Positions 2,098-21,569 of a stretch of DNA of 64,000 nucleotides are shown here, piece by piece. A program made the position numbers and the translations under genes. The stretch's first letter is position 1, and the number at the start of each line of letters is the position of its first letter. The notes under the pieces are model-generated. The model had not been told where the DNA came from. It ran no database searches and saw only the letters and a program-made list of their open reading frames with translations. This DNA comes from an uncultured Bacilli bacterium (GTDB lineage Bacteria > Bacillota_I > Bacilli_A > RF39 > UBA660): assembly GCA_947598395.1 (NCBI GenBank), contig CANQFG010000002.1, positions 7,813-71,812 of the forward strand, given 5' to 3'.

Positions 2098-2231
2098 ATA
2101 TTTAATATTCAAATTTTTACAAAAAAATTTTAATAAATAGCCTATAAATAAATAATAATTTGGCCTTGTCAAAAAAATGTCATATGTTAGACATTTTTTT
2201 AAATCCTTGTTATAATGATTTAGGTGATGAT

Positions 2232-4730
2232 ATGAATACAACAGATGAAATCATGAAAAAAATTCACAACTTTGCCTTAGAAGATATCATGGGTGAACGT
2301 TTCGGAAGATATTCAAAATATATTATCCAAGATCGGGCTATTCCCGATGTTCGCGATGGATTGAAACCCGTACAAAGAAGAATTATCTTTGCGATGTATC
2401 GCGATAAAAATACATATGATAAACCCTTTAAGAAATGTGCCAATGCCGTTGGTAATGTCTTAGGTAAATTTCATCCTCATGGCGATACATCAGTCTATGA
2501 TGCCTTGATTCGCATGAGTCAAGATTGGAAACAAAATCATATATTAGTCGAAGTCGATGGCAATAATGGATCTATTGATGGCGATCCACCAGCAGCAATG
2601 CGTTATACGGAGACCAGATTATCTAAAATATCGGAAGAATTATTAAAAGATTTGGATAAGGGAACCGTTAAGATGGCTCTAAACTATTCAGATACTATTT
2701 GGGAACCGACGGTTTTACCAGCAAAATTTCCCAATCTATTAGTCAATGGTACGACGGGTATTTCGGCAGGATATGCCACGAATATTCCGCCTCATAACTT
2801 AAATGAAATAATTGATGCCACGATTAAGCGCATCGATTCACCTAATTGTCGCATTGATACCATTTTAGAAATTGTCAAAGGTCCGGATTTTCCAACGGGA
2901 GCCATTGTCGAAGGCATCGATGGTATCAGAAGTGCTTTGGAAACGGGCCGCGGTAAAATTATCGTTACGTGTCGTTATGAATTTGCCAAAAATAAGGGCA
3001 AAGAGCAAATTATCATCAGTGAGATTCCCTTCGAAGTCAATAAACAATTGCTCGTTAAAAAGATCGATGATATTCGTTTAGAACGTAAGATCGATGGGAT
3101 TGGCGAGATTCGCGATGAATCGGATAAAGATGCGGCGGTGCGCATCGTCATCGATTTAAAGACGGGGGCCGATAAAAACCTCGTCATGAATTATCTTTTA
3201 AAGAATACCGAATTACAATGTAACTATACATATAATATGGTAACAATTGTCAATCGTCGACCAAAATTACTTGGAATAATTGGCATATTAGATGCCTATA
3301 TTGCCCATATCAAAGAAGTTATAAAGCTGCGCAGTGAATATGATTTAAATGTGGCCAAGAAAGAAGTTCATATCTTAGAAGGACTTATCAAGGCGATCTC
3401 GGTTCTCGATGAAGTCATTAAAATAATTCGGGGCAGCAAAAATAAAGCGGATGCCAAGATCAATTTATCGAAAAGATTTGGATTCTCCGATTTGCAAACG
3501 GAAGCTATCGTGACGATGCAACTATATAAACTTACGAATACCGATATTACCGATTTAGAGGAACGTCTTGCCAATTATCGCAAGATTATCGAAGGCTTAG
3601 AGGCCATCTTAGCCGATGAAAATAAGCTTTCTGGCGTCGTCAAAGATGAACTAAGAAAAATTAAGAAGGAATATGGTATTCCACGAAAGACGGAAATTCG
3701 CGATAATGTCACCGAGATAAATATTTCTGCCGAGGATTTGATCGTCAAAGAAAATGTCATGGTCGTCTTAACTAATGAAGGATATATTAAAAAGGTGCCA
3801 ATGAAGTCGTACTTGGCAGCTAAAGATGAAGAGACGACGGTCAAACAAGGGGATTATTGCCTCCATATCTTTGAAACGACGACCTTAAATAAATTGCTCG
3901 TATTTACGGCTATGGGTAACTATATCTATGTTCCCGTCAATGATCTTCCATGGTGCAAATGGAAGGATTTGGGCAAACACATCAGCAATGTCGTTACTTT
4001 AAATCCCGATGATTCCGTCATCGGAGCATATATCATCAATGAAAATGGCGATAATGGTCAAGTGGTGATGTTTACGAGCGATGGTATGGTCAAACAAACG
4101 AACTTGAACGACTTTATTGTCAGTCGGTATACCAAATTATATACGGCGATGAAGTTAAAAGAGGGAGCGCGCCTCGTGAGTGTCGTACCGGCCCATGAAA
4201 ATTGCTTGATCGTCACGAAAACGGGATACTTCTTAAACTATAAAACCTCGGAAATTCCGCTTTTATCGGCTAAAGCTAGTGGAGTCAAGGGTATCAACTT
4301 AAAAGACGATGAAGTCATCGGGGGTCTTTCCTATGATGAAACGAGTGAATATTTGACGATATTTACGAATCAAAAGACGGCTAAGCGCATCAAGATTGCC
4401 GAACTTACGCCACTCAGTCGGGCCAAACGTGGTCTTACCCTCATCAAGAAGGTCAAGACGACTAACTATGAAATTGTCACGGCCTTAATTGCCCATAATA
4501 AGACGATGATTGGTCTTGTCAGTGGGGAAGATATTGGCATTTTAAAGAATACCGATATTGCCATTATGGATATAGCCTCGACGGGTTCAAATATCGCCAA
4601 GAAAAAATTCAGTCGGGCCTTTGCCTTCGCCGATATAACTACTATATCCGAACCAAAGGAAGAGAAGAAAAAAGACATAGAAGACAATCCTTCTACCGAT
4701 GATAATTTTATCGATGAATTTAAAATATAG
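2232..4730 (+). CDS. parC: DNA topoisomerase IV subunit A
   Basis: ERFGRYSKYIIQDRAIPDVRDGLKPVQRRIIFAM is the ParC/GrlA-type N-terminus. Catalytic-Tyr motif AAMRYTE is present. The ATG at 2232 is preceded by AGGTGA. Size and C-terminal beta-pinwheel-like repeats fit. Confidence 0.85.
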   Translation: MNTTDEIMKKIHNFALEDIMGERFGRYSKYIIQDRAIPDVRDGLKPVQRRIIFAMYRDKNTYDKPFKKCANAVGNVLGKFHPHGDTSVYDALIRMSQDWKQNHILVEVDGNNGSIDGDPPAAMRYTETRLSKISEELLKDLDKGTVKMALNYSDTIWEPTVLPAKFPNLLVNGTTGISAGYATNIPPHNLNEIIDATIKRIDSPNCRIDTILEIVKGPDFPTGAIVEGIDGIRSALETGRGKIIVTCRYEFAKNKGKEQIIISEIPFEVNKQLLVKKIDDIRLERKIDGIGEIRDESDKDAAVRIVIDLKTGADKNLVMNYLLKNTELQCNYTYNMVTIVNRRPKLLGIIGILDAYIAHIKEVIKLRSEYDLNVAKKEVHILEGLIKAISVLDEVIKIIRGSKNKADAKINLSKRFGFSDLQTEAIVTMQLYKLTNTDITDLEERLANYRKIIEGLEAILADENKLSGVVKDELRKIKKEYGIPRKTEIRDNVTEINISAEDLIVKENVMVVLTNEGYIKKVPMKSYLAAKDEETTVKQGDYCLHIFETTTLNKLLVFTAMGNYIYVPVNDLPWCKWKDLGKHISNVVTLNPDDSVIGAYIINENGDNGQVVMFTSDGMVKQTNLNDFIVSRYTKLYTAMKLKEGARLVSVVPAHENCLIVTKTGYFLNYKTSEIPLLSAKASGVKGINLKDDEVIGGLSYDETSEYLTIFTNQKTAKRIKIAELTPLSRAKRGLTLIKKVKTTNYEIVTALIAHNKTMIGLVSGEDIGILKNTDIAIMDIASTGSNIAKKKFSRAFAFADITTISEPKEEKKKDIEDNPSTDDNFIDEFKI

Positions 4731-5417: not shown

Positions 5418-7169
5418 ATGGATAATAAAAAGAAGGGTTTTACTTTAATTGAGTTATTAGCTGTTATTATAATCTTAGCTTTGATAATGGTTATAGCTGT
5501 TCCTGCGGTTTTAGAGACGATGCGATCAGCACAAAAAGAATCGTTATATCTCTATGCGCAAAGTTTGCAATCGAAGGCCATCGCGAGATATACGCAAGAT
5601 CTCGATATGAATAAGGAAAATACGGATTGTGCTGTTTACGATATTTCCAAGAATTTGGATCTATCGGGAACCGGCGATTATGAGGGCTGGGTCAAAGTCA
5701 GTCGGACGCCAACTAATTCGGGTAAACGGACGGCGCGCATCGAACTAAGTCATTCCGATACATTGCGCTATGTCAAATACTGCGTAGCTAAAGGTAGCTC
5801 TTGTACGCCCAATACCGCTTTTAATGCGGGCGAGGATAATAAAAAGGCCGTTATCGAAAGAAGTCTTGAAGCGGGCGAAGTCCTTTGTGCCAATTATCAA
5901 TATGCCGATAGCAATAAAGTCTTAAAGACGGCAGACACCCAATGTGTAACATACGATAAGGGGACGACGCTCAACGATACTTATACCTATAATGTCAATG
6001 TAACTTTAAAAGATGATACGTATGCGGTCGAAAATGTCCTCTTTAAAGAGGATATGTCCCGCGATGAATTCTTTGCGGCGATCGAAGACTATAATCAAAA
6101 ACATAAAAATGATGCCAATAAGTTAGCTATTGCCTCGCCTAGTTGTACGGCCGAGGAAAGTGTCAAGGGAACGACAACGCGAGGAACGACGGAAGTTACC
6201 AATAATGAGGCGACGACGCGAGGAACGACGGAGGCGTCAAGTAAGACGACATCGACGCGTTCGACGAATGTCATCGATCCAAGCAGCAACACGACAAGGG
6301 GCACGAGTGAGGTCATCACCAGTTCCTCGACGACGCGGGCGACGACGACCGAGACGACCACGACGATCAATGTCGAAGATCGGAGCTTATTACTCACGAG
6401 TTTGAATATTGCTGGCTATAACATTAACTTCGACCCTCTCAAATTTTACTATACCCTCGATGTACCATATAATGTCACGAATTTAAATATCAGTGCTACG
6501 GCCGAGCGACCTGATGTAAGCGTCGTTCAAGTAGCCGGAAATGATTACTTAGGTGTCGGCGATAATCCCGTAATCGTCACTGTCTTTAATCAAACGACGG
6601 GCGCCAAAGCCAATTATCGCATCAACGTCACGCGCTTCAATGAAACTGGAGTACGGCCAACGAGTCCAACTAATCCAATCGTCGATCCAAACAATAACGA
6701 AGAAGGTAAACCGGATCCAACAATTGAAGAGAGTAATGCGGCTCTTGCCTATTTGGCGATATCTGGATATGACCTCGACTTCGATCCTGATGTCTACGAA
6801 TACACATTGACGACCAAGGGCGAAAGTAAATTATATGTCAATTATCGTGCAGCCAGTGAAAATGCCGTCGTAGCTCTTTATGGCAATGAAGAAGTCAAAG
6901 ATGGCGGCGAAATAACCCTCTTCGTTCAAAGTGAAAATGGCTACTATAATAAGACCTATAAGATTAAGATTCAATTTGAACAAGTTGCCTCGACGGGAAC
7001 AAAAGTCCTAAGGGGAGTTGCCGTTGGCTTGGGCGTCTTGCTCATAATTCTTTTGATAATAATCAGTTTAAATAAGAAAAAGCGCAGTAATAATAATTCG
7101 GATACGGTTGAAGACAAAGAAAATAATTCGGAACCAGATAATAACTCGACGAATGCGAATAGTGTGTAA
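5418..7169 (+). CDS. prepilin-type N-terminal domain protein fused to a Thr-rich linker, two cadherin-like beta-sandwich domains and a C-terminal TM anchor
   Basis: MDNKKKG|FTLIELLAVIIILALIMV is a class III (type IV pilin) signal with Glu at +5. Two domains begin LLTSLNIAGYNINFDP..YYTL and LAYLAISGYDLDFDP..YEYTL (cadherin-like beta-sandwich pattern). The C-terminus GVAVGLGVLLIILLIIISLNKKKR is a TM segment plus a basic stop-transfer. Confidence 0.8.
   Translation: MDNKKKGFTLIELLAVIIILALIMVIAVPAVLETMRSAQKESLYLYAQSLQSKAIARYTQDLDMNKENTDCAVYDISKNLDLSGTGDYEGWVKVSRTPTNSGKRTARIELSHSDTLRYVKYCVAKGSSCTPNTAFNAGEDNKKAVIERSLEAGEVLCANYQYADSNKVLKTADTQCVTYDKGTTLNDTYTYNVNVTLKDDTYAVENVLFKEDMSRDEFFAAIEDYNQKHKNDANKLAIASPSCTAEESVKGTTTRGTTEVTNNEATTRGTTEASSKTTSTRSTNVIDPSSNTTRGTSEVITSSSTTRATTTETTTTINVEDRSLLLTSLNIAGYNINFDPLKFYYTLDVPYNVTNLNISATAERPDVSVVQVAGNDYLGVGDNPVIVTVFNQTTGAKANYRINVTRFNETGVRPTSPTNPIVDPNNNEEGKPDPTIEESNAALAYLAISGYDLDFDPDVYEYTLTTKGESKLYVNYRAASENAVVALYGNEEVKDGGEITLFVQSENGYYNKTYKIKIQFEQVASTGTKVLRGVAVGLGVLLIILLIIISLNKKKRSNNNSDTVEDKENNSEPDNNSTNANSV
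6165..6370 (+). repeat. Thr/Arg/Ser-rich low-complexity coding repeat (TTRGTTE units)
   Basis: ACG/ACGACG-rich stretch encoding GTTTRGTTE..ATTRGTTE..NTTRGTSE..TTRATTTETTTT. It also creates the spurious overlapping ORFs 6095..6397(-) and 6130..6405(+). Confidence 0.8.
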
Positions 7170-7235: not shown

Positions 7236-7259
7236 TTAAGTATGATAGAAAGAGGATTT

Positions 7260-7793
7260 ATGATGAAGAAGAAAAATGGTTTTACATTAGTAGAATTACT
7301 AGCGGTTATCGTCATATTAGCAATTATAATGGTCATTGCCATTCCTGCCGTATTAGATGTTATGAACCGTTCAAGAAAAAGTGCATTTGTGCTCTATGCG
7401 CAAAAGGTTATTCGTGATACAAAAACTCAATATTCCTATGATGCTGGTTTAGGAGCAGCAACGGGAGCGGGATACTTTGTATACAGTATTGTCGATGATT
7501 TAGATTATGATTCGACTGGTGATTATCAAGGGTATGTCGTCGTCAATGCTACTAACGTTGATAAACCAGAATATATATTATTCTTATATGATAATAATTA
7601 TATGATTTTAAATTATAATGTAACTGATTTTGGAATGCCGACGACAAGTGATAGTGCCATTCAAGCTTATTCGGCAAGTGCTGTTGGAACGCAAGCTAAT
7701 AATGCTAAAGATGCTTGTACAGCAGCGGGAGCTGTCGGTGGTGTCGAATGTTATAATCGCGATGGTTTCGTAATTGTTAAAAAGGATGAATAA
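7260..7793 (+). CDS. prepilin-type N-terminal cleavage/methylation domain protein (small pilin/pseudopilin-like)
   Basis: MMKKKNG|FTLVELLAVIVILAIIMVIAIPAV. It shares post-helix blocks with the 5418 product (YAQK/YAQS, STGDYQGYVVV vs GTGDYEGWVKV). The ATG at 7260 follows AAGAGGA. Confidence 0.8.
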   Translation: MMKKKNGFTLVELLAVIVILAIIMVIAIPAVLDVMNRSRKSAFVLYAQKVIRDTKTQYSYDAGLGAATGAGYFVYSIVDDLDYDSTGDYQGYVVVNATNVDKPEYILFLYDNNYMILNYNVTDFGMPTTSDSAIQAYSASAVGTQANNAKDACTAAGAVGGVECYNRDGFVIVKKDE

Positions 7794-7857
7794 GACAACG
7801 TAAAGTTGTTTTTTTCTTGTCCTAATTTATGATATAATCTCTTATAGGGTGAAGTGT

Positions 7858-8754
7858 ATGTTAATAATTGGAAGTCACGTTTCCTATAAAAATGAAAATC
7901 AATTAGCTGGTTGTGTTATGGAAACGTTGGAATATGGGGCCAATGCCTTTATGTTTTATACGGGGGCACCACAAAATGTCTTAAGAACACCTATCGATGA
8001 TTTTAAGACGATTAAGGCCTTAGAGATGATGAAAGAGAATAATATCTTACTCGAAAATGTCATCTGTCATGCACCATATATTATCAATTTGGCGAACAAT
8101 AGCGATATGGAAAAATATCAATTTGCCATGCGTTTTTTACGGCAAGAGATCGAAAGATGTATGACGCTTGGGGTTCGGTACTTGGTATTGCATCCCGGAA
8201 GTGCTACGAAATTAGATCGGGAATATGCCATTTCGAATATCATCAAAGCCTTAAATAACGTATTGATTCCCGAAGATAATATCGTCATCTTACTCGAGAC
8301 GATGGCGGGAAAAGGCAGCGAATGTGGCATTAATTTAGAGGAGATAGCAACGATTATCGATAATGTTAGATTAAAGGATAAAGTGGGCGTATGCTTAGAT
8401 ACCTGTCACTTAAATGATTCGGGCATCGATATTAAAGAATTTGATGCTTACTTAGAAGCCTTTGATAAGCGCATTGGCCTAAAAAAAATTGGCTGTGTCC
8501 ACGTCAATGATTCGAAAAATGGCATCGCTTCCCATAAGGATCGACATGAAAATATCGGCTATGGAACGATTGGCTTTGAAAATCTTTTGAATGTCATCTA
8601 TCATCCACTTTTGGAAAATGTCCCTAAAATTTTGGAGACGCCATATGTCGATCGCGAATATCCTCCATATAAATTCGAAATTCAAATGATTAAAGAAAAA
8701 AAATTTAATCCCCATCTCTATGCCGATATTATAGAATATTATAAAAATAAATAG
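7858..8754 (+). CDS. nfo: endonuclease IV (deoxyribonuclease IV)
   Basis: IGSHVS...GANAFMFYTGAPQN, HAPYIINL, LVLHPGS, ETMAGKG, CLDTCH, VHVNDSKN: the typical Nfo TIM-barrel metal-ligand blocks. Confidence 0.9.
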   Translation: MLIIGSHVSYKNENQLAGCVMETLEYGANAFMFYTGAPQNVLRTPIDDFKTIKALEMMKENNILLENVICHAPYIINLANNSDMEKYQFAMRFLRQEIERCMTLGVRYLVLHPGSATKLDREYAISNIIKALNNVLIPEDNIVILLETMAGKGSECGINLEEIATIIDNVRLKDKVGVCLDTCHLNDSGIDIKEFDAYLEAFDKRIGLKKIGCVHVNDSKNGIASHKDRHENIGYGTIGFENLLNVIYHPLLENVPKILETPYVDREYPPYKFEIQMIKEKKFNPHLYADIIEYYKNK

Positions 8755-8762
8755 GTGATATT

Positions 8763-9932
8763 ATGTTAAATAATGTTTCCGTTAAGGAAAGTAAAAAAGT
8801 CGCGATAGCTTCTGATGTCCATGATTTTTTAAATCCCGATCGCGTCTATGTTCCCATTCCCGAAGGTTATAAGATCATCATTAAGAATAATGAACTCATC
8901 AATAAGGAGCAAGCCGTCTTAAAGTATGATGATAAGAGTATTTATAGTCCCATATCGGGGCGTATTATTGGCATAAGTGATTCGCTATGTATCAAAAATC
9001 AAAAAGTTGTCTCTTTAGTTATCGAAAATGATTATCGCGAACACGTGGCTAAAAGGCATGGCTGTGTTAAGAATATCGGATCATATACCCTCGAAGAATT
9101 TACGAATATTATTGCCAAATATAATGCCTATGATAAGGAAATCAATTATGAAGCTGAGACCATGATCATCAACGGCGTCGATAAAGATCCCTTTGAAAAG
9201 GCGACGAGTTTTTTGATCGATAAATATTCGGCTCAAATATTGGAAGCTATCGATGCCATAAGTAATATTTTAAAGATCGATAATACGATCTTAGCTATCA
9301 ATAATAATGATTCATTAAATGTCTTGAATTTGACGAATAATATTGGAACATATCCCAATATTCATTTAAAACTTGTTCCCGATATATATCCCATTGGCTT
9401 TAAAGAAGTCTTGATTAAGAATTTAATTAGTAAGAGACAAGAGGAAAAGGGGTATATATATTTTACGGTTATGGATATTTTTAATATATATAATGCCTTA
9501 AAGAGACAAAAACCCAAGACGGAGAAATTTATTACTTTAAGTGGCGATGCCATAAGTGAAAATATGGTCGTCAATGTCAAACTGGGTTCGACTTTAAATG
9601 ATCTAATTAAGGATTGTTGTGAAATCGTCAAGGAAAACTATTTTGTCGTAATCAATGGCCTTATTGCTGGAACGACGATTGAATCTCTAAATACGATAAT
9701 TACGGATGATATTCGCAGTGTATTTCTATGTACGCGGCAGAAGGAAAAGGAACAAGTCTGTATTAACTGTGGATTATGTACGAATAAATGTCCCGTTGGG
9801 TTAAATCCCAAATATATCAAAGAACATCGCAAGGCTTCGTTTGAAGCGTGTCTCGGATGTGGACTATGTACGTACATCTGTCCATCGAAGATCAATTTTA
9901 AAAAATATTTAAATGAACCCCGAGAAGATTAG
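8763..9932 (+). CDS. RnfC-like protein with two 4Fe-4S ferredoxin motifs
   Basis: C-terminal CINCGLCTNKCP and CLGCGLCTYICP. The middle block MIINGVDKDPFEKATSFLI parallels RnfC vIINGAECEPYLt.D but with the Cys/Glu replaced. It lies immediately upstream of an RnfD-like gene. Confidence 0.6.
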   Translation: MLNNVSVKESKKVAIASDVHDFLNPDRVYVPIPEGYKIIIKNNELINKEQAVLKYDDKSIYSPISGRIIGISDSLCIKNQKVVSLVIENDYREHVAKRHGCVKNIGSYTLEEFTNIIAKYNAYDKEINYEAETMIINGVDKDPFEKATSFLIDKYSAQILEAIDAISNILKIDNTILAINNNDSLNVLNLTNNIGTYPNIHLKLVPDIYPIGFKEVLIKNLISKRQEEKGYIYFTVMDIFNIYNALKRQKPKTEKFITLSGDAISENMVVNVKLGSTLNDLIKDCCEIVKENYFVVINGLIAGTTIESLNTIITDDIRSVFLCTRQKEKEQVCINCGLCTNKCPVGLNPKYIKEHRKASFEACLGCGLCTYICPSKINFKKYLNEPRED

Positions 9933-9941
9933 GAGGCAATT

Positions 9942-10850
9942 ATGAAAAATAATGTCTATGTTCGCAGCAATAAATCGATATATTCGATAACTCTAATGCG
10001 ACTCGCATCTTTAATACCGATGTTTTTATATGGATTTTATAAAAATGGTATCTATCTCTATCAAAATCATTATGGCGATCTTTTAGATATGATGCGGCCC
10101 TTAATATTCTTGATCAGTGGTGGTTTGATGGGAGCGTTAGTTAATTTTTTATGGGAAAAATTGATTAAACATAATAAGGGCGATTTAAAGAGTATCTTAT
10201 TTTCTTCCTTTACCATCGAATATGGCGTCTTTTTAGGAGCGATATCGAGTATTAATACCAATCTATTGGTCTTTTTGAGTGTCGTCTTCATCGGCTTATT
10301 GGCAACACGCCTTTTTAATAATCGCCTGAATGTCACGGCTGTATGTTTTATTGCTTTATATCTCATATCCAATTTTATCAGTCCCTATGACTTTGCCAAT
10401 ATCTATGAAAAGTCCAAAGTATTCTCGCTTACGCTTATGGATTATTTAATTGGTCGGGGGATCGGGGGCATCCATAGTACGCATATCATCTTTTTGTTTA
10501 TCGCCTTGCTCATCTGCTTTCTGACGAATAATAACAAAACGACGATTACCATAAGTGCGATTGGAACCTGGTCTATCCTCTTGGGCCTTTTCTGCCTTAT
10601 CAAAGGTCAAGATTTCTTAAGTCCCTTTTTTGCCAACAACTATTTATTTATCTTTGGCTTTATTGCTACGGATATGGTGAGCAGCTGCTATACCAAAAAT
10701 GGGGAACTGGCCTTTGGAATTCTCCTCGGTATCTTGACTTTTGCCCTTTATTTTGTAAATCCCGTCTTGGCACCATTCATTGCTTTAATCATCGTAAGTA
10801 TTCTCAATAATTTACTCGATCGCCTCATGAAGCCATTGAAAAAACATTAA
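9942..10850 (+). CDS. RnfD/NqrB-like polytopic membrane protein
   Basis: Multi-TM protein. FGFIATDMVSSCYTKNGELAFGILLGILT parallels the RnfD/NqrB block F.ATD.VTsP.T..G...fG...G.lT. Strong RBS AGGAGG. Confidence 0.55.
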   Translation: MKNNVYVRSNKSIYSITLMRLASLIPMFLYGFYKNGIYLYQNHYGDLLDMMRPLIFLISGGLMGALVNFLWEKLIKHNKGDLKSILFSSFTIEYGVFLGAISSINTNLLVFLSVVFIGLLATRLFNNRLNVTAVCFIALYLISNFISPYDFANIYEKSKVFSLTLMDYLIGRGIGGIHSTHIIFLFIALLICFLTNNNKTTITISAIGTWSILLGLFCLIKGQDFLSPFFANNYLFIFGFIATDMVSSCYTKNGELAFGILLGILTFALYFVNPVLAPFIALIIVSILNNLLDRLMKPLKKH

Positions 10851-13853: not shown

Positions 13854-14486
13854 ATGACAAAGAAAACGACAAAAACAAATAGCAAAATACCCCAAAACCG
13901 AAAAATACGCGGGGGGGGGTCACATAGCTCATCTCGTGAAAAACAAAGAACAGGGATAGCTATTGCAATATTATTAATGGCCATTGGTTTCGCAGCCGTA
14001 ACGACGACATTGACGATCAATGGAACCATTAAATATGGATATGATAAGGACAAATTTATCGTAAAGTTTACTGCTGCAACATTAGATGAAACGGAAGCTG
14101 GTGAGGGTGTTGAAAATCCTAAGATCGATGAAAGTGGTCAATCGATAACTTATACGACTAAGGATTTAAAGACGATTGGTGAATCTAGTGTTTTGGATTT
14201 TACGGTTACCAACCAATCGACTCAATATGATGCCAGTGTAACAATTGAATGTAAAGAAAGTGACGCTGAATTACCTAAAACAAAGCTTGTTGATAGTTAT
14301 GTAACCCTTACTGAAAAGTTTGGTGAAGATGATGCTGAAACTCCGGTTACAATAACGGCCAATGGTGGAACCGCTAAAGGCAAAATTACAGTTACTTTAA
14401 TAAAAGCAACTACGGAAGCTAGGGATACGACATTTAAATGTACTCTAACTGCTACTCCAGTTGAAATAACTAGTCGAGCTAATTAA
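13854..14486 (+). CDS. family paralog 1 (small): basic tail + signal-anchor + two-Cys N-module
   Basis: SREKQR-TGIAIAILLMAIGFAAVTTTLTINGTIKYGYDKDKFIVKFT, ...YTTKDLKTIG.SSVL.FTVTN.STQYDASVTIEC..., ...FKCTLTATPVE. RBS GAGGT. Contains an in-frame G9. Confidence 0.8.
   Translation: MTKKTTKTNSKIPQNRKIRGGGSHSSSREKQRTGIAIAILLMAIGFAAVTTTLTINGTIKYGYDKDKFIVKFTAATLDETEAGEGVENPKIDESGQSITYTTKDLKTIGESSVLDFTVTNQSTQYDASVTIECKESDAELPKTKLVDSYVTLTEKFGEDDAETPVTITANGGTAKGKITVTLIKATTEARDTTFKCTLTATPVEITSRAN
13911..13919 (+). repeat. G9 homopolymer inside the CDS (codons 20-22, GGG GGG GGG)
   Basis: Read directly: cgc ggggggggg tca. G8 or G10 would produce stops within 3-16 codons, before the hydrophobic segment. 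Confidence 0.95.
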
Positions 14487-14554
14487 TATACTAATGATTA
14501 AATTATCATATCCATAAAAATGTATATCATTAATATTATGGAAGAGGTTAAATT

Positions 14555-15226
14555 ATGACAAAGAAAACTACAAAAAAATCGACAACTAAAAAAGCTCCAA
14601 TAACCCAAAAAGTAACAGGAGCAAGTAGACATAGTACATCACGTGAAAAACAAAGAATGGGGATTCTCATCGCCATTCTATTAATGGCAATCGGATTTGC
14701 CACGGTTACAACAACTTTAACAATTAATGGAACTATTAAATATGGATATGATAAAAATGACTTTATCGTAAAATTTACGCAAGCAGCAGTTGATGAAGTT
14801 GAATCAACAGCAAGTGAAGGAAATAAACCAACAATTGGTGATGATGGTAAGACAATCACATATACGACAAAAGATTTGAAATCATTAAATGATAAGAGTG
14901 TTTTGACATTTACTGTTTCAAATGGAAGTAGTCAATATGATGCTAGTGTTACTATATCTTGCGAAGCGGTAACTAATGCTGAAACCGAAGAAACCGAAAC
15001 AACGACGGCAGCAACTTCTAAAAACGTTAAGGATTATGTAACTGTTGAAGCAAAAATAAATGGTCAAACGGCTTCTGAAGCTGTTCAAATTGACGCAAAA
15101 GGTAATAAACAAGGAACAGTAACTGTTACTTTAAATAAAGTTTCCATCGACGAAATGACTGGTAAGGTAACTTGTAAACTAAATGCAACGCCAGTTGAAA
15201 GAAATAGCGCAGCTACTGGTGAATAA
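14555..15226 (+). CDS. family paralog 2 (small)
   Basis: Same architecture and motifs as 13854..14486 (SREKQRMGILIAILLMAIGFATVTTTLTINGTIKYGYDKNDFIVKFT; QYDASVTISC; VTCKLNATPVE). Confidence 0.8.
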   Translation: MTKKTTKKSTTKKAPITQKVTGASRHSTSREKQRMGILIAILLMAIGFATVTTTLTINGTIKYGYDKNDFIVKFTQAAVDEVESTASEGNKPTIGDDGKTITYTTKDLKSLNDKSVLTFTVSNGSSQYDASVTISCEAVTNAETEETETTTAATSKNVKDYVTVEAKINGQTASEAVQIDAKGNKQGTVTVTLNKVSIDEMTGKVTCKLNATPVERNSAATGE

Positions 15227-15253
15227 TCGTAAAAAGCAGATGGAGGAAATATT

Positions 15254-15889
15254 ATGGCACAAACGAATTCTAAAAAGAAAACGACAGCTAAAAATACTAA
15301 AACAAGAAAAATAACAAATAATAATCATAATACTTCTCGTGAAAAGCAAAGAACTGCTATTGCCATTGCCATTTTACTTATGGCCGTTGGCTTTGCAGCC
15401 GTTACGACAACATTAACAATAAATGGAACAATTAATTATGGATATGATAAAGATAAATTCATCGTTAAATTTACTGAAGCATCATTAGATGGCGTAAACT
15501 CGAACGACGTAGAAGAAGGTAAACCTACAATTGATTCTGAAGGACATACGATTACTTATACATCAAAAGAATTAAAGACGATAAATGAAGAAAGTGTGTT
15601 AACTTTTAAGGTTCAAAATCAATCAACCCAATATGATGCTACTGTTAATATTAAATGTGAAGAAGTTGATGATCGTGGTGAGAATTCTACTACAAAATTA
15701 GTTAATAAATACATTACTCTTAATGGAAAACTCGGTGAAAATGAGCAACCTACTAGGATTGATGCTGGTAGTACTGCTGATGGTACAGTAACCGTTAAAT
15801 TGATTAAAGCTACTGTTGATGAACAAAGTACAAATATCAAGTGTACTTTAGAGGCTACGCCATTAGAAAGAACATCATCAACTCAATAG
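15254..15889 (+). CDS. family paralog 3 (small)
   Basis: Same architecture (SREKQRTAIAIAILLMAVGFAAVTTTLTINGTINYGYDKDKFIVKFT; QYDATVNIKC; IKCTLEATPLE). RBS GGAGG. Confidence 0.8.
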   Translation: MAQTNSKKKTTAKNTKTRKITNNNHNTSREKQRTAIAIAILLMAVGFAAVTTTLTINGTINYGYDKDKFIVKFTEASLDGVNSNDVEEGKPTIDSEGHTITYTSKELKTINEESVLTFKVQNQSTQYDATVNIKCEEVDDRGENSTTKLVNKYITLNGKLGENEQPTRIDAGSTADGTVTVKLIKATVDEQSTNIKCTLEATPLERTSSTQ

Positions 15890-15892
15890 TAT

Positions 15893-15912
15893 AGAGCATA
15901 TGCTCTTTTTTT
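15893..15912 (+). terminator. rho-independent terminator after the paralog triplet
   Basis: AGAGCA/TGCTCT palindrome followed by a T run. Confidence 0.6.
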
Positions 15913-15931
15913 ATAAAATAAAACCATTAGT

Positions 15932-16117
15932 TTACGAATTACTAATGGTTCTAATTAAATAATATACTAGTGGAGCTAGGAAAGATGCTAGCATTGCTAT
16001 AAACATAAACCAGATAAATACTTTAGTTATAAAGGGAGTATCACTGGTTTTTTTCTTTTTTGATTTATGTTTCTTTTGGGCAATTTTTATATTTCCAACT
16101 TCATTTTTATCATCCAT
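15932..16117 (-). CDS. small membrane protein, unknown function
   Basis: The ATG at 16117 lies 8 nt after GGTGA. Lys-rich N-terminus followed by one TM (VFIWFMFIAMLASFLAPLVYYLI). Confidence 0.5.
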   Translation of the reverse strand: MDDKNEVGNIKIAQKKHKSKKKKTSDTPFITKVFIWFMFIAMLASFLAPLVYYLIRTISNS

Positions 16118-16197
16118 AATATTTATCACCTATCTAAAATTATATCTTAAATGTCATATAAAATAAAGATAAAAATATATTTAAATAGGTGAGAATT

Positions 16198-16743
16198 GTG
16201 AAAAATAATCGTCATATTATTATCTTTGTAAGTATTTTAGTAATAGCCTCTATAATAACGGGATATATCTATGGAATTAATAATTATTATGATCTAACGG
16301 AATATATTAAACAATTGACGACTCATAATAATCAATTTTTACCACATATTGCTATTTTATGTGCCTTTTTATTTTCGACAATATCATTAGCAGGTATTAT
16401 CTTTGAAGTTATATATATTGGTTTTGAAAGTATAAGTATTGGTTATTTATTGGCAATATTTTATAGTAATTTTAAATTTAAGGGGATAATATTTAGTTTA
16501 GCAGTTATTGGAATTAATAAACTTTTCTTTTTAATTATCTTATTTTATTTATTCTATGTAAGTTGTCATTATATACGTAAGAGTATTAGAAATATATTAG
16601 GTATGAATAAAGATTATATTGAAGTAGTTACTAAACCATTATTACTTAAATATGCTATTATGTTTGGTTTTTTAATTATCTATGATCTATTTGTCTATCT
16701 TTTTGGCAATAATATTTTAAATTATTTGACTTTTATGCTATAA
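16198..16743 (+). CDS. polytopic membrane protein (possibly SpoIIM/DUF95-like, tentative)
   Basis: 4-5 predicted TM segments. The GTG at 16198 follows AGGTGA. Start uncertain (the tracked start 16189 lies inside the RBS). Confidence 0.45.
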   Translation: MKNNRHIIIFVSILVIASIITGYIYGINNYYDLTEYIKQLTTHNNQFLPHIAILCAFLFSTISLAGIIFEVIYIGFESISIGYLLAIFYSNFKFKGIIFSLAVIGINKLFFLIILFYLFYVSCHYIRKSIRNILGMNKDYIEVVTKPLLLKYAIMFGFLIIYDLFVYLFGNNILNYLTFML

Positions 16744-16765
16744 TGCCTTTTGGAAGTGGTTCTTT

Positions 16766-17875
16766 ATGGCTAAAAAGGTCGTTGTTGGGATGTCAGGGGG
16801 CGTTGATTCATCAGTTGCCGCTTATCTTTTAATTAAAGAGGGTTATGAAGTAATAGGTTTATTTATGCGGAACTGGGACAGCATGTTAAATAATGATATT
16901 GAAGGTAATCCCAATTTAGGAAATAATATTTGTCCTCAAGAACAAGATTATAATGATGCTTTGGCGGTCTGTGAAAAATTGGGTATTCCTCTATATCGTG
17001 TTGATTTTATTAAAGAATATTGGGATAATGTCTTTACTTATTTTTTAGATGAATTAAAAAAGGGAAGAACGCCTAATCCCGATTTGATGTGTAATAAATA
17101 TATTAAATTTGATTCTTTTATTAAGGAAGCAAGAAAACTGGGTGCTGATTATATAGCTACGGGTCATTATGCCCGAATTAAAGGTTGTAAATTATATCGA
17201 GGGATAGATAGTAATAAGGATCAATCGTACTTTTTGGCGCAATTGGCACCTGATCAATTAAAGGATGTCTTATTTCCTGTAGGAGATTTAAAAAAGGAAG
17301 AGGTACGGGAAATTGCTGAGTCTTTGGATTTGATAACGGCTAAGAAAAAGGATTCGACGGGTATATGTTTTATTGGAGAGCGTAATTATCAAAAGTTTAT
17401 TCAAAATTATTTAAAACCTAATCCTGGTGATATTATCAATGTCGATACGTTAGAAGTAATTGGCAAACATAGTGGACTTATGAATTATACGATTGGGCAA
17501 CGAAGAAATGTAGGCGTAAGTGGTTTTCAATATAAGCATTTTGTCGTTGGTAAGAATGTCAAAGATAATATTTTATATGTTGCTTTTGGCGATGATCCTG
17601 AGACATTGTATTCCGATGAGTGTATTATCGATAATGTCAATTTTATATCACCTAATCATCCGGCTTTTTGTACGGCAAAGTTCCGTTATCGAGGACCTGA
17701 TAATGAAGTAATGCTCGAATATCTTGACAATAATGAAATACGCGTCCGTTATCCTCAAAAAGTTAAAGCAGTTACTCCTGGGCAAGCATGTGTTTTATAT
17801 TTAGGAGAGCAATGTTTAGGCAGTGGCATTATCAAAGAAGTTCGCAAAAATAATGAAAAATTATGGTATCTATAA
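16766..17875 (+). CDS. mnmA: tRNA 2-thiouridine(34) synthase
   Basis: VVVGMSGGVDSSVAAYLL PP-loop, DQSYFL, and a full-length MnmA pattern. Confidence 0.95.
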   Translation: MAKKVVVGMSGGVDSSVAAYLLIKEGYEVIGLFMRNWDSMLNNDIEGNPNLGNNICPQEQDYNDALAVCEKLGIPLYRVDFIKEYWDNVFTYFLDELKKGRTPNPDLMCNKYIKFDSFIKEARKLGADYIATGHYARIKGCKLYRGIDSNKDQSYFLAQLAPDQLKDVLFPVGDLKKEEVREIAESLDLITAKKKDSTGICFIGERNYQKFIQNYLKPNPGDIINVDTLEVIGKHSGLMNYTIGQRRNVGVSGFQYKHFVVGKNVKDNILYVAFGDDPETLYSDECIIDNVNFISPNHPAFCTAKFRYRGPDNEVMLEYLDNNEIRVRYPQKVKAVTPGQACVLYLGEQCLGSGIIKEVRKNNEKLWYL

Positions 17876-17876
17876 A

Positions 17877-17898
17877 CGTCGATTATTCGACGCTTTTT
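17877..17898 (+). terminator. rho-independent terminator of mnmA
   Basis: CGTCG (17877-81) pairs with CGACG (17888-92), followed by CTTTTT. Confidence 0.6.
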
Positions 17899-17970
17899 AT
17901 GTTGAAAAAAATGCAACTGGGGGGGGGTGCAATACAATAGAGAAAATGGAAAATAGGAGCAGAGATTGAC
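17899..17970 (+). promoter_or_regulatory. conserved leader/promoter element, copy A (contains G9 and a TACAAT box)
   Basis: 72 nt nearly identical to 19723..19793. TTGAAA at 17902-07, G9 at 17919-27, TACAAT at 17933-38, AGGAG at 17955-59. Confidence 0.6.
17919..17927 (+). repeat. G9 homopolymer 43 nt upstream of the start codon
   Basis: Read directly: actg ggggggggg tgcaaTACAAT. Confidence 0.95.
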
Positions 17971-19359
17971 ATGAAAAAGAGATGGATACTAGTAACTATA
18001 TTATTTCTTAGTATTGGATTTGCATCCGTAACAGCAGTCTTAACGATAACCGGAAAAGTAAATATAAACTTTGATGACGAAGATTATCAAGTATACTTTT
18101 CCGATGCTTATTTAGATGATGTAAGACATATGGAATTTATTGATGATACGAGAAAGAAAATAACATTCACAACTAATGCCTTAACCTCAGTAGGCGATAC
18201 AAGTATTTTAAAATATGAAGTAACGAATAATAGTAAACAATATGATGCGGAAGTAAGTGTCGAATGTACGCCAAGTGAAACTGACTATTATAGTGTAAGT
18301 AATAGTTTAACAGAAAGAATAAATGCGCAAAGTCGAGAAAGTGGAACGATAACTATTGAGTTAAAGAAAGTTGTGTTAGAGGAAACAGAAGAAACATTTA
18401 CTTGTAATCTAACAATAAATGCTACGTCGAGAGAAGATGTAGAAGAATCATTGCTATGTGAAAATGAAATAAATCATATTTGGAATTTTGATTATACAGG
18501 AGGAGAACAAGAATTTATCCCTGACTGTGCAGGAAATTATAAATTAGAAGTATGGGGAGCACAAGGAGGAATTGATACTACTTCGTCTTTTACTTTTCAA
18601 GGTTATGGTGGCTATGCCATAGGAAATGTAAAATTAGAAGCCAATCAACGAATATATATCAATGTTGGAGGACAAGGAGAAGGTTACACTGGAGTAGGAG
18701 AAAAAATAAATCGTGACTATAAAGGCGGTTATAATGGAGGTGGAAATGGTGGATCTAAAAGTTCTCAATATGGCTTTGGCGGAGGTGGAGCAACGCATAT
18801 CGCTTTAGAAATGGGATTGCTCAGTGAATTTGAAAGTAAAAAAGAAAATCTTTTAATCGTTGCTGGAGGTGGCGGTGGAAATTCTTCTTATGAAAATAAA
18901 GTGTTTGGGGGCTCTGGAGGTGGAATCCAAGGCGGTAATGGGAATAATATTGTTGTTAATTCTGCTGACCGCTACTATGGAACAGGTGGAACTCAAGAAC
19001 AAGGTGGAGATGATAGTACTAGTGGTTTTCAAAATGATCGTGCTTTAGGAACATTCGGTCAAGGAGGAATCTATTATCGCGATCCATATAAAGAGTTTAA
19101 CTATGTTAGTGGTGCTGGAGGCGGAGGCGGTTACTATGGCGGAGGCGGAAGTTCTCGTGGGCATGCCAGTGCCGGTGGTGGATCTGGTTATATTGGAAAT
19201 GATTTATTAAGTGAAAAAGCTATGTACTGCTATAATTGTGAACCCAATGGAGAAGTAAAAACGAAAACGATTACTACCGAAAGTTTTAGTCAAGAAGCTC
19301 AAAGTATGTTTGCCAAACAAGGCAATGGGTATGCTAGAATAACTTATTTAGGAAAATAA
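17971..19359 (+). CDS. family paralog 4 (long): signal-anchor + two-Cys N-module + ALK/LTK-type glycine-rich domain
   Basis: MKKRWILVTILFLSIGFASVTAVLTITGKVNINF; QYDAEVSVEC; FTCNLTINA. The C-terminal part reads YKLEVWGAQGG..GYGGYAIGNV..IYINVGGQG..GGGGATHIAL..LLIVAGGGGG..GGSGGGIQGG..SGAGGGGGYYGGGG..AGGGSGYIG (bacterial glycine-rich domain pattern). Confidence 0.8.
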   Translation: MKKRWILVTILFLSIGFASVTAVLTITGKVNINFDDEDYQVYFSDAYLDDVRHMEFIDDTRKKITFTTNALTSVGDTSILKYEVTNNSKQYDAEVSVECTPSETDYYSVSNSLTERINAQSRESGTITIELKKVVLEETEETFTCNLTINATSREDVEESLLCENEINHIWNFDYTGGEQEFIPDCAGNYKLEVWGAQGGIDTTSSFTFQGYGGYAIGNVKLEANQRIYINVGGQGEGYTGVGEKINRDYKGGYNGGGNGGSKSSQYGFGGGGATHIALEMGLLSEFESKKENLLIVAGGGGGNSSYENKVFGGSGGGIQGGNGNNIVVNSADRYYGTGGTQEQGGDDSTSGFQNDRALGTFGQGGIYYRDPYKEFNYVSGAGGGGGYYGGGGSSRGHASAGGGSGYIGNDLLSEKAMYCYNCEPNGEVKTKTITTESFSQEAQSMFAKQGNGYARITYLGK

Positions 19360-19400
19360 AAAAACTTGCTAAGCAAGAGTAAATTTAATATAATGAATGT

Positions 19401-19464
19401 AGGAGGACTTAAGTCAGTTAAGTCGCCTATATTGTATAAGCTACCTTAAAAGGTAGTTTTTTTT
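19401..19464 (+). ncRNA. possible small RNA convergent with the mini-ORF (speculative)
   Basis: TTGCTA-17-TATAAT (19366..19394) lies immediately after the 17971 CDS stop. No start codon follows the AGGAGG at 19401. It ends at the hairpin CTACCT/AGGTAG plus T8 (19441..19464), which overlaps the stop codon of the minus-strand mini-ORF. Confidence 0.25.
19441..19464 (+). terminator. rho-independent terminator
   Basis: CTACCT (19441-46) pairs with AGGTAG (19451-56), followed by T8. Confidence 0.7.
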
Positions 19465-19537
19465 ATATTAGGCCTACAACGTAGAGCACTAAAATAAAAA
19501 TAATGATCAATAAGAAAGAAATAATAAAATCCTTCAT
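19463..19537 (-). CDS. 24-aa hydrophobic peptide MKDFIISFLLIIIFILVLYVVGLI (type I toxin-like)
   Basis: Not in the ORF track (under 60 aa). The ATG at 19537 lies 5 nt after GGAGGTGA (19543-19550, minus strand). A single TM-length hydrophobic core. A TATAAT box on the minus strand at 19637-19642 would give a ~90-nt structured leader. Confidence 0.4.
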   Translation of the reverse strand: MKDFIISFLLIIIFILVLYVVGLI

Positions 19538-19700
19538 TACTATCACCTCCACTACTTTCTATAGATTAAACTGGTCAACCAGCAACCCCCTGAAAATAAT
19601 GGCAACTACAAACTCAGTGGTCCTCCTGAGGGTAATATTATAGATGGTAAAAAATAAAAGGAAATAGACCTGACAAAAAAAGACAAAAGATTTCAAAAAT

Positions 19701-19721
19701 GCCGTATTTTCGGCTTTTTTT
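19701..19721 (+). terminator. rho-independent terminator preceding leader copy B
   Basis: GCCG/CGGC hairpin followed by T7. Confidence 0.45.
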
Positions 19722-19722
19722 C

Positions 19723-19793
19723 ATGTTGAAAAAAATGCGACTGGGGGGGGTGCAATACAATAGAGAAAATGGAAAATAGGAGCAGAGATCGAC
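19723..19793 (+). promoter_or_regulatory. conserved leader/promoter element, copy B (contains G8 and a TACAAT box)
   Basis: Differs from copy A by 2 substitutions and the G-run length. TACAAT at 19756-61. Confidence 0.6.
19743..19750 (+). repeat. G8 homopolymer 43 nt upstream of the start codon
   Basis: Read directly: actg gggggggg tgcaaTACAAT. Confidence 0.95.
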
Positions 19794-21569
19794 ATGAAAA
19801 AAAGATGGGTATTATTAACTGTATTATTTTTAACTATTGGATTTGCATCAGTAGCAACAATACTAACAATAACGGGAAGAGTAAATATAAATTTTAATGA
19901 AGAAGATTATCAAATATACTTTAGTAAAGCTGTAGTAGATAGTATAGATAAGAGTTATGAAGTAATAGATCCAGATACGAGAAGGTCAATAAAATATTCA
20001 ACAAAAGATTTAAGTAAAGTAAGTGATACAAGTGTCTTGGAATATGAAGTAACAAATAATAGTACCCAATATGATGCAACAGTAGAGGTAGTATGTGAAG
20101 CAAAGACTGAAGATAAGGAAAAAGCTACTGAATATGTAACGATAACAAATGAAATGAAAAATAATACTATCAAAGCTCAGACGAGAGAAACTGGAACTGT
20201 AAGTGTTCAATTAAAGAAAGTAACAGTGGACCCAATTGATATAGAATTTACTTGTACATTAACAGTAAATCCTGTAGGAAATGATGTATTAAAAGAACCA
20301 GAATTAGCTGAGAATAGTTGTCGAGATATCGGAATACCAAGTTTGGGAGAAGGAGACAAATTAATACCGATAGTATTAGATGATGAAGGAAAAGCAACGC
20401 GAGTAGAGAAAACGGATACTAATTGGTATGACTATTGCAAGAGAGAATGGGCGAATGCGGTCATATTAAATGAAGATGCAGATTTACCAGATGTTGGTGA
20501 AGAAATACCAGAAGCATCAATCGAAAGTTATTTTGTGTGGATACCAAAATACAAATATAAATTATGGAATGTTGAAACAGATAATACAGAAGTTGGAAAA
20601 CATAGTATAGAAATAATATTTGATACGCAAGATACAACAAATGTTCCAGGAGAATCATGTGAAACACCAAAGACTAGTGGAAATATTGGAGATTGTAAAG
20701 ATGGCGAATATATGACGCACCCAGCATTTATCTCATTTGGCGTAGATGGCCTCTGGGTTGGTAAATTTGAAACGGGTTATAAAGGAGCAAACGATAAAAC
20801 AAGTGCTGAACAAGATAATAATGAATCAAGTCATATAATAATAAAACCAAATGCTTATTCATGGCGAAAGATTACTGTCAAAAATATTTTTGAAGCATCA
20901 AAAAAATATAAAGAAAATTTACAATCACATATGATGAAGAACACGGAATGGGGAGCAGTAGCCTATCTATCGCATTCGATATTTGGTATAAATAAAGAGG
21001 TAACGATAAATAACAATAATAAATATAAGACTGGATATGCGGCTTTACCTACTACAGATCAAAGTAAAAATCCTGGTGAAGAAGGTGATGATGGAAATTC
21101 TAATACAGCATGGAATACTCAAAATGGAGTTACAGCTAGTACGACGGGAAATATTACTGGTGTTTATGATATGTCTGGTGGAGCATGGGAGATTATGGCG
21201 GCTTATGTAGCAGAAGTTCCAAATGATCAAAGTGGATTTCAAGCTGAAGAATTGAAAAAAATAGATGCAAGATATGTTGATGTATATGAAAAAACAAGTA
21301 CAGGAATATCGTATGGAAAAATGATCTTAGGTGATGCCACGGGAGAAATGGGGCCTTTCGATAATTATGAAGATGGAGATAAAATAACAAGAGGGCACAA
21401 TCGTTGGTATGCCGACGTTTCTGTTTTCATTTACGCTTTGTCCCCTTGGTTCGGACGAGGCAGCTATAGCGGCGGCGGAGTTGTAGCTGGACAGTTCTAC
21501 TTCGATAGGTCCGCTGGTGCAGCCCGTGGAGGCGATGGCTTTCGCCTCGCTTTAGCTCCATCTAATTAA
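19794..21569 (+). CDS. family paralog 5 (long): signal-anchor + two-Cys N-module + linker + FGE-sulfatase-like domain
   Basis: MKKRWVLLTVLFLTIGFASVATILTITGRVNINF; QYDATVEVVC; FTCTLTVNP. The C-terminal ~350 aa is homologous to the partial ORF 1..1124. Confidence 0.8.
   Translation: MKKRWVLLTVLFLTIGFASVATILTITGRVNINFNEEDYQIYFSKAVVDSIDKSYEVIDPDTRRSIKYSTKDLSKVSDTSVLEYEVTNNSTQYDATVEVVCEAKTEDKEKATEYVTITNEMKNNTIKAQTRETGTVSVQLKKVTVDPIDIEFTCTLTVNPVGNDVLKEPELAENSCRDIGIPSLGEGDKLIPIVLDDEGKATRVEKTDTNWYDYCKREWANAVILNEDADLPDVGEEIPEASIESYFVWIPKYKYKLWNVETDNTEVGKHSIEIIFDTQDTTNVPGESCETPKTSGNIGDCKDGEYMTHPAFISFGVDGLWVGKFETGYKGANDKTSAEQDNNESSHIIIKPNAYSWRKITVKNIFEASKKYKENLQSHMMKNTEWGAVAYLSHSIFGINKEVTINNNNKYKTGYAALPTTDQSKNPGEEGDDGNSNTAWNTQNGVTASTTGNITGVYDMSGGAWEIMAAYVAEVPNDQSGFQAEELKKIDARYVDVYEKTSTGISYGKMILGDATGEMGPFDNYEDGDKITRGHNRWYADVSVFIYALSPWFGRGSYSGGGVVAGQFYFDRSAGAARGGDGFRLALAPSN

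Follow-up and report, generated by a model that had tools for sequence, protein, structure and literature searches.

Donor-strand fibres of the TasA kind, from Bacillus and from extremophilic archaea, have so far been presented simply as scaffolds of the matrix, and the TasA scaffold reportedly assembles by donor-strand exchange, as the title of one paper has it. To our knowledge, the AbpX clade, in which such proteins come with a polytopic peptidase and a DUF5305 protein, was reported only in 2026. AbpX itself, from Pyrodictium abyssi, belongs to the TasA superfamily, and its subunits polymerise through donor-strand complementation (bioRxiv 10.64898/2026.01.04.697558; PDB 9SJ2, 9RHP). Besides genes for minor subunits, tip proteins and an accessory DUF5305 protein, its loci contain one for an unusual signal peptidase I, which has ten membrane helices where prokaryotic enzymes of this class typically have two (bioRxiv 10.64898/2026.01.04.697558). 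In the Tat-fimbriae (tafi) of Haloarcula hispanica, TafA needs TafD for its processing, and the DUF5305 protein is called TafG (PMC11821415, PMC12337348). Here we compare with these systems a family of genes found in a 64,000-nucleotide stretch of DNA (the window in what follows) from an uncultured Bacilli bacterium of the RF39 lineage (contig CANQFG010000002.1, positions 7,813 to 71,812). The genes lie at 13854-21569 of the window and share an N-terminal module, here called the N-module, and on balance we consider it probable that their products are cleaved, donor-strand-polymerising fibre subunits resembling TasA and AbpX, accompanied by adhesin-bearing variants.

As we picture this system, each N-module protein would be exported through Sec, and its leader would be cut after a near-invariant G-F-A by a dedicated polytopic peptidase of the S26B (SipW/archaeal) type, which would work together with a DUF5305 accessory protein, both presumably encoded outside the window in this genome. 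The freed A-V-(S/T)-T-T-L-x-I-N-G could then, as a donor strand, enter the beta-sandwich of an adjacent subunit, giving a head-to-tail fibre. Three genes that consist of the module alone would provide the bulk subunits, and long members would join or tip the fibre via the same module, displaying ALK-type glycine-rich, FGE-sulfatase-like, Flg_new, DUF285, leucine-rich repeat (LRR) or lectin-type domains as adhesins. Systems of this kind are known already, in the form of the TasA, AbpX and tafi donor-strand fibres with their dedicated signal peptidases. What is new is a branch, very large and so far without annotation, that occurs in uncultured gut Bacilli and has a candidate donor segment neither aromatic nor acidic at the relevant positions, together with the systematic fusion of the putative polymerising module to diverse passengers and the presence of many scattered paralogues per genome.

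The N-module and its passengers

Five complete open reading frames (ORFs) on the + strand within 13854-21569 have a common, beta-rich N-module of about 165 amino acids (aa). An earlier note on this DNA, made from the sequence without database searches, had proposed such a family of five, and the ORFs and their alignment bear it out: when the five proteins are aligned over their N-terminal 165-210 residues, 36 columns are invariant, and the other members are 36-60% identical to the first. All five have a hydrophobic segment ending in I/V-G-F-A, followed by (A/S/T)-V-x-x-x-L-T-I-x-G, and in the beta-rich domain N-x-S-x-Q-Y-D-A and two cysteines are invariant. The similarity reaches beyond the signal peptide, a restriction to which the note had named as a refuting result, and spans the whole of the ~165-aa beta-rich domain. 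It far exceeds what chance would give, with 885 cluster representatives at E<=1e-10 in a profile search with the module (see below). A small correction concerns the motif, given there as IGFA(A/S), which becomes IGFA(A/S/T) with the IGFAT of one small member.

Three of the five, arranged in tandem, consist of the module alone. Module-only member 1 (13854-14486, +; 210 aa) has a 47-aa leader made up of a basic tail with SREKQR, a hydrophobic segment and G-F-A, and a predicted mature part of 163 aa that would form a beta-sandwich and contains Cys133 and Cys196, as seen from the ORF list, the alignment and an AlphaFold 2 (AF2) model. Members 2 (14555-15226, +; 223 aa; site G-F-A|T-V) and 3 (15254-15889, +; 211 aa) were delimited from the ORF list and alignment. 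A basic N-tail of 30-35 residues with SREKQR is present in all three small genes, and the alignment upholds what had been said of them in this respect.

The two long members have an 18-aa leader, which in the 462-aa protein (17971-19359, +) ends in G-F-A and is followed by the N-module at about residues 19-170 and by an ALK/LTK-type glycine-rich domain at 187-460. This domain, suggested before from the sequence alone, is confidently matched by PF12810 (ALK_LTK_GRD; E=4.7e-36). In the 591-aa protein (19794-21569, +) the N-module is followed by a C-terminal domain of ~420 aa with a weak FGE-sulfatase-like signature; here the earlier assignment stands in part, since a match exists but is sub-threshold (E=0.0079, 16.3 bits vs a cutoff of 23.3), and the domain has no match among PDB sequences.

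A sixth copy had been placed at 1-1124 (+). This ORF, cut by the window edge, is the 3' part of a further paralogue of which the FGE-sulfatase-like C-terminal domain alone is visible; the domain is indeed paralogous to that of the 591-aa gene (59% identity), but its N-module lies outside the window. In a related contig (L072, P0006) an N-module precedes a domain orthologous to that of the 1-1124 ORF. In this orthologue (L072 10001-11785) an in-frame TAG (10694-10696) falls exactly between N-module and C-terminal domain, and the ORF after the TAG stays in the same frame. The TAG could point to a nonsense mutation or pseudogene, to an assembly error, or to on/off variation.

Beyond the window, the family is large. 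Searches of Pfam, of NCBIfam (June 2026) and of the PDB sequences give no match to the module; the earlier note had not recognised it as TasA/camelysin, a type IV pilin or an LPXTG pilin. An exhaustive profile search with the module returned 2136 cluster representatives at E<=1e-3 (885 at <=1e-10 and 268 at <=1e-30), with clusters counted at 50% identity. In all representatives the module sits at the extreme N-terminus, in proteins of 146-1766 aa. When the C-termini of forty long members were compared with Pfam, the domains found were Flg_new (12), ALK_LTK_GRD (7), DUF285 (6) and CarboxypepD_reg (5), besides several LRR types, Laminin_G_3, F5/8 type C and others, so that the idea of interchangeable C-terminal domains holds at a large scale. 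A genome scan with the module gave 65 loci, and some assemblies have 9-12 or more copies; the survey of related genomes that had been proposed thus yields many copies in some assemblies and varied partner domains. Most of the 65 loci come from records titled as metagenome-assembled genomes (MAGs) of uncultured Bacilli, Firmicutes or Erysipelotrichales, whose samples were human (Hadza), murine or other in origin, while 19 are titled 'uncultured Muribaculaceae' and four 'uncultured bacterium' alone.

Two further properties characterise the family. Its cysteine pair covaries, as a disulfide or tight contact predicts: 215 sequences have both residues, 19 have hydrophobic residues in place of the two, and 2 lack a single one of them. 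Complete members are mostly acidic, with an isoelectric point (pI) mostly of 4.0-5.2 and Asp+Glu typically making up 13-20% of residues.

As a separate observation, residues 83-198 of member 2 give a sub-threshold match to CBM_6 (E=2.1e-5, 25.3 bits vs a cutoff of 28.9), a score that is probably due to a generic beta-sandwich fold rather than to sugar binding.

A cleavage-site-like motif and the segment that follows it

Site conservation was counted over 155 family representatives. Around the presumed site, 152 of them have G at -3, 154 have F at -2 and 153 have A at -1, a near-invariant G-F-A that fits the -3/-1 rule. After the site, +2 is V in 123 representatives and I in 30, T occupies +4 in 139, L occupies +6 in 151, I/L is found at +8 and N at +9, and G is present at +10 in 148. 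The hydrophobic positions +2, +6, +8, +12 and +14 produce an amphipathic segment, and nowhere is the family more conserved than over the ~15 residues past the site. In member 1 the predicted cleavage site and candidate donor-strand segment, G-F-A|AVTTTLTINGTIKYG, lie at 13986-14039 (+) and coincide with this stretch.

The module's F-A|A-V aligns with Y-A|Q-W of AbpX and W-A|A-F of TasA (the TasA sequence agrees with that of 8AUR, in which the chain begins at residue 28), and module positions +2, +6, +8, +10 and +12 are in phase with W2, L6, L8, A10 and I12 of the AbpX donor strand. The earlier note had ventured that the strand after G-F-A could act as a donor strand; that idea fits both the strong conservation of the segment and its AbpX-like hydrophobic phase.

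The same note took the hydrophobic segment for a signal anchor with a cytoplasmic tail. An uncleaved anchor would make these proteins a membrane-tethered repertoire of variable surface antigens or adhesins, with the SREKQR tail acting in the cytoplasm, and such a reading would suit the long conserved basic tail that precedes the hydrophobic segment in the three small members, the many paralogues per genome with diverse C-termini, and the in-frame stop between module and passenger in the L072 orthologue, if this reflects on/off variation. However, the near-invariant G-F-A (152-154 of 155), its agreement with the -3/-1 rule and its alignment with the TasA and AbpX sites speak for cleavage, as does a dedicated signal peptidase gene that follows the small subunit gene in 13 loci (see below). 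Moreover, the leader up to the site has a median length of 19 aa and is short and ordinary in most members, and a long leader is no bar to cleavage in AbpX, where it measures 54 aa. We therefore judge a signal anchor less likely than a cleaved leader and, as an account of the family, quite improbable.

The structural side of the proposal was followed with AF2 and Foldseek. A first AF2 model, covering the whole segment, had a predicted local distance difference test score (pLDDT) below 50 for residues 44-60. The model of mature member 1 (45 sequences), which starts after the site, is an 8-9-strand sandwich with a pLDDT of 87.9 and a predicted TM-score of 0.81, in which mature residues 1-22 adopt no secondary structure. 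An AbpX monomer with an unstructured N-terminal segment, like that of the module model, has been reported (bioRxiv 10.64898/2026.01.04.697558). The best Foldseek matches are weak (E>=1.8e-3, TM<=0.43) and comprise chaperone-usher pilin domains (PapGII pilin domain, PapE, Fim), an Epf adhesin domain and adaptin ears. The check thus gave a confident beta-sandwich but no significant PDB match, a result to be read with the caveat that small beta-sandwiches without their donor strand are hard to match.

A sister family, a peptidase cassette and a probable link to AbpX

In 13 distinct loci of uncultured gut Bacilli, a module-only gene (172-236 aa) heads a same-strand series in which a gene for a peptidase of 377-392 aa comes second and a DUF5305 gene third. 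The peptidase matches TIGR02228 (archaeal/SipW-type signal peptidase I; cutoff 51.85 bits), with scores of 66.8 and 96.1 bits, and has ~9-10 transmembrane segments, of which ~8-9 are N-terminal, with the catalytic domain at the C-terminus. The P. abyssi peptidase encoded after abpX has 380 aa, and its catalytic domain lies at the same coordinates as that of the Bacilli enzyme, with 31-36% identity; aligned at full length with hhalign, the two reach a probability of 99.2%. Long family members adjoin the cassette in three loci (L031, L038, L044). The earlier suggestion that module-only proteins are the major subunits of a surface polymer, and the long members its tip or adhesin variants, fits this linkage.

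Several side observations concern the cassette. The N-domains of the peptidases (L001 10645-11790, L068 10690-11868 and P. abyssi L070 5876-7018) contain a short collinear one-helix motif, (R/Q/E)-E-x-(V/I)-R, for example VREFVRY, QEFIRE, AEEYIRG and GREMVRS. One MAG contig (L064) has two pairs of peptidase and DUF5305 genes (2009-4284 and 7505-9717), with the first DUF5305 gene split into ORFs of 91 aa and 284 aa, and a recognised N-module gene precedes the first pair only. No sortase gene or LPXTG motif was noticed, in the course of work that included no systematic search for them.

A second line of evidence comes from a sister family of ~190-aa module-only proteins, which comprises at least 747 clusters and of which four paralogues adjoin the cassette in L068 (5943-10579). 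No Pfam assignment is recorded among 120 listed members (P0174-P0293), and one NCBI record is named 'DUF11 domain-containing protein'. These proteins start with G-Y-A|A-F-(S/T)-T-T-L-(T/N)-I-N-G-T-A, with F at +2 and no acidic residue at +4, and have a core Q-P-G-D-x-V-x-F-x-L-x-V-x-N-x-G. In hhalign comparisons, the sister family matches the module with a probability of 98.2% (E=4e-14), or 94.4% (E=9e-8) for mature parts only, and matches AbpX with 90.5% (E=1.4e-6) over 145 collinear columns; against TasA the probability is 54.7%. Reversed-sequence controls for the sister-family comparison gave E=0.11. For comparison, the authors of the AbpX-like clade assigned membership by BLAST clustering and an HHpred probability >90% (bioRxiv 10.64898/2026.01.04.697558).

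The direct tests of the module fail. HMMER finds at best a weak, non-collinear match between the module and AbpX or TasA, and the window proteins have no match to PF12389 (Peptidase_M73) or TIGR04088 at E<=1; AbpX itself reaches only E=0.072 against PF12389. Given these failures on the one side and the bridging sister family on the other, we regard membership of the module in the TasA superfamily, on the basis of sequence comparison, as probable but not established, the link to AbpX being transitive through the sister family. The exclusion of TasA/camelysin in the earlier note stands as far as the strict GGT.A.F signal is concerned, which is absent, but it went too far in that F-A|A-V aligns with the TasA and AbpX sites and the sister family bridges to both.

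In overall design, AbpX and module-only member 1 are close: 217 vs 210 aa in total, leaders of 54 vs 47 aa, mature parts of 163 vs a predicted 163 aa, a pI of ~4 vs 4.56, Asp+Glu contents of 14.6% vs 16%, and a disulfide vs paired cysteines. Both have an N-terminal amphipathic segment of matching hydrophobic phase that is unstructured in the monomer (in the case of the module, in its model), and in the related loci the module genes share with abpX a neighbouring polytopic TIGR02228 peptidase of ~380 aa and a DUF5305 gene. Unlike AbpX, most module members are fused to large passenger domains, their numerous paralogues are scattered among housekeeping genes, and their hosts are mesophilic gut Bacilli; nor does the module match AbpX directly in sequence or in Foldseek.

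Resemblance to the other systems is likewise partial. With TasA/SipW/TapA of B. subtilis (PDB 8AUR, 5OF1), where a secreted subunit of the matrix is processed by a dedicated SipW-type S26B peptidase, the family would share this kind of processing, and it shares an aromatic-Ala|Ala-hydrophobic site and a core motif, G-x5-F-x-V-x-N-x-(G/S), at a comparable position, but it lacks a Peptidase_M73/TIGR04088 match, its cassette peptidase has ~9-10 helices, it bears C-terminal passenger domains, and no TapA-like gene was seen. Tafi, which assemble by strand donation, also have a gene cluster in which major and minor subunits are encoded together with a DUF5305 protein and a dedicated signal peptidase; however, their subunits have twin-arginine leaders, whereas the leaders of the window proteins have Lys-rich n-regions and no RR motif, and TafD has 4 helices and an N-terminal peptidase domain, whereas in the cassette peptidase the catalytic domain is C-terminal, after the polytopic domain. 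By analogy, chaperone-usher pili (Fim/Pap) offer a further parallel, in that an incomplete beta-sandwich is completed by the N-terminal strand of a neighbour and two-domain adhesins join via a pilin domain, although the Bacilli loci would involve no chaperone, usher or outer membrane, and the passenger is C-terminal to the module, the reverse of FimH and PapG.

A number of results weigh against a donor-strand fibre of the TasA/AbpX type. Compared directly by hhalign, the module profile reaches a probability of 1.5% against AbpX and 0.3% against TasA, and the match of the sister family to AbpX falls to 65.8% (E=5.7e-5) once leaders are removed. Foldseek searches with two AF2 models found no match in the PDB at E<=1e-3, and TasA, AbpX and AbpA were not among the top 50, a result qualified by the fact that TasA and AbpX are in the PDB sequence copy while the Foldseek structure library is unverified for them. 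The hallmarks of the AbpX donor strand are missing, with V/I instead of an aromatic residue at +2 and T instead of an acidic one at +4, so that the calcium-clamped AbpX donor strand is not conserved in the module. Compared alone, the polytopic N-domains of the Bacilli and P. abyssi peptidases show no significant similarity (E=0.27). Finally, no cassette peptidase or DUF5305 gene was found in the 64-kb window (by tblastn over the whole window and Pfam on selected ORFs only), where Pfam on selected smaller ORFs identified housekeeping genes only and no Peptidase_S26, and the ~10 kb upstream in the related strain (L072) contain glycosyltransferases and no cassette.

A potential alternative that accommodates some of these points is that the leader is cleaved but that the N-module acts as a stalk, carrier or attachment domain of monomeric proteins, with the peptidase needed for processing alone and no fibre being made. 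Most members are long and end in adhesin- or enzyme-like domains, which is the layout of common modular proteins of the cell surface; the Foldseek matches point to a generic beta-sandwich only; and the AbpX hallmarks at +2 (aromatic) and +4 (acidic) are absent. Yet a monomeric stalk leaves unexplained why the ~15 post-site residues, unstructured in the monomer model, should be the most conserved, why module-only proteins exist in tandem and head the peptidase cassette, and why the module is tied to AbpX by way of a sister family, and we consider this explanation unlikely.

Returning to donor-strand fibres, a bolder version may be entertained, in which the N-module would be a universal plug-in polymerisation domain and a single gut bacterium would co-assemble dozens of different passengers, of adhesin, lectin or enzyme-like type, into one TasA-like, combinatorial adhesive fibre or onto its tip, while members with a long conserved basic tail, among them the three tandem ones of the window, might escape cleavage and form its membrane-anchored base; we offer this as a speculative possibility on the doubtful side. 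Should the more modest reading of cleaved subunits and adhesin-bearing variants be true, the AbpX-type system would extend to uncultured Bacilli that are abundant in human and mouse guts, and would gain ~2100 clusters, fusions to binding domains and many copies per genome. Thousands of 'hypothetical proteins' would then acquire a testable role, because the family is without Pfam, NCBIfam or structural annotation. The reading also suggests how gut Bacilli might build adhesive surface structures.

Gene neighbourhood and prepilin genes of the window

The module genes are interspersed with housekeeping genes (frr, mnmA, dnaG, rpoD). A terminator-like hairpin (15893-15906) marks the 3' end of the three-gene tandem, and each long gene is followed by such a hairpin too.

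Further upstream, two genes (5418-7169 and 7242-7793) encode canonical prepilin N-termini, KGFTLIELL and NGFTLVELL, recognised by PF07963 and TIGR02532. The product of the first is unusual: its 583 aa include a Thr-rich linker and two domains of the cadherin-like beta-sandwich type (PF12733), and at the C-terminal end a hydrophobic segment precedes a charged tail. With pilin genes 6-8 kb upstream of the module genes, the latter might encode substrates or components of a type IV pilus or pseudopilus system, a view to which the prepilin N-methylation motifs of these two genes lend some colour; secretion of a matrix protein in association with type IV pili is reportedly described for Clostridium perfringens in the abstract of one study. 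However, the G|FTLxE prepilin site of the true pilins in the window is absent from the module, the module's conserved partner elsewhere is an S26B peptidase and not a prepilin peptidase, and the genes between the pilins and the module genes are housekeeping genes. We consider involvement in such a system very improbable. That the module might itself be a type IV pilin was rejected on the absence of the G|F(T/M)LxE motif, as the earlier note had rightly held, and the five module proteins have no match to PF07963 or TIGR02532.

Directly after the small-gene trio, and before mnmA, lies a gene for a 184-aa membrane protein (16189-16743, +) with 5-6 predicted helices and no family match, whose position is kept in two related contigs (L002, L003). 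The possibility that it represents a split-off N-domain of the cassette peptidase was ruled out, as the two have no similarity.

At the other end of the region, the truncated paralogue at 1-1124 is directly followed by a PD-(D/E)XK nuclease family transposase (1222-2097; PF12784, E=1.9e-14). The related strain (L072) has a different gene, with a weak AbiEi_4 match, at this position, and the difference suggests a local rearrangement.

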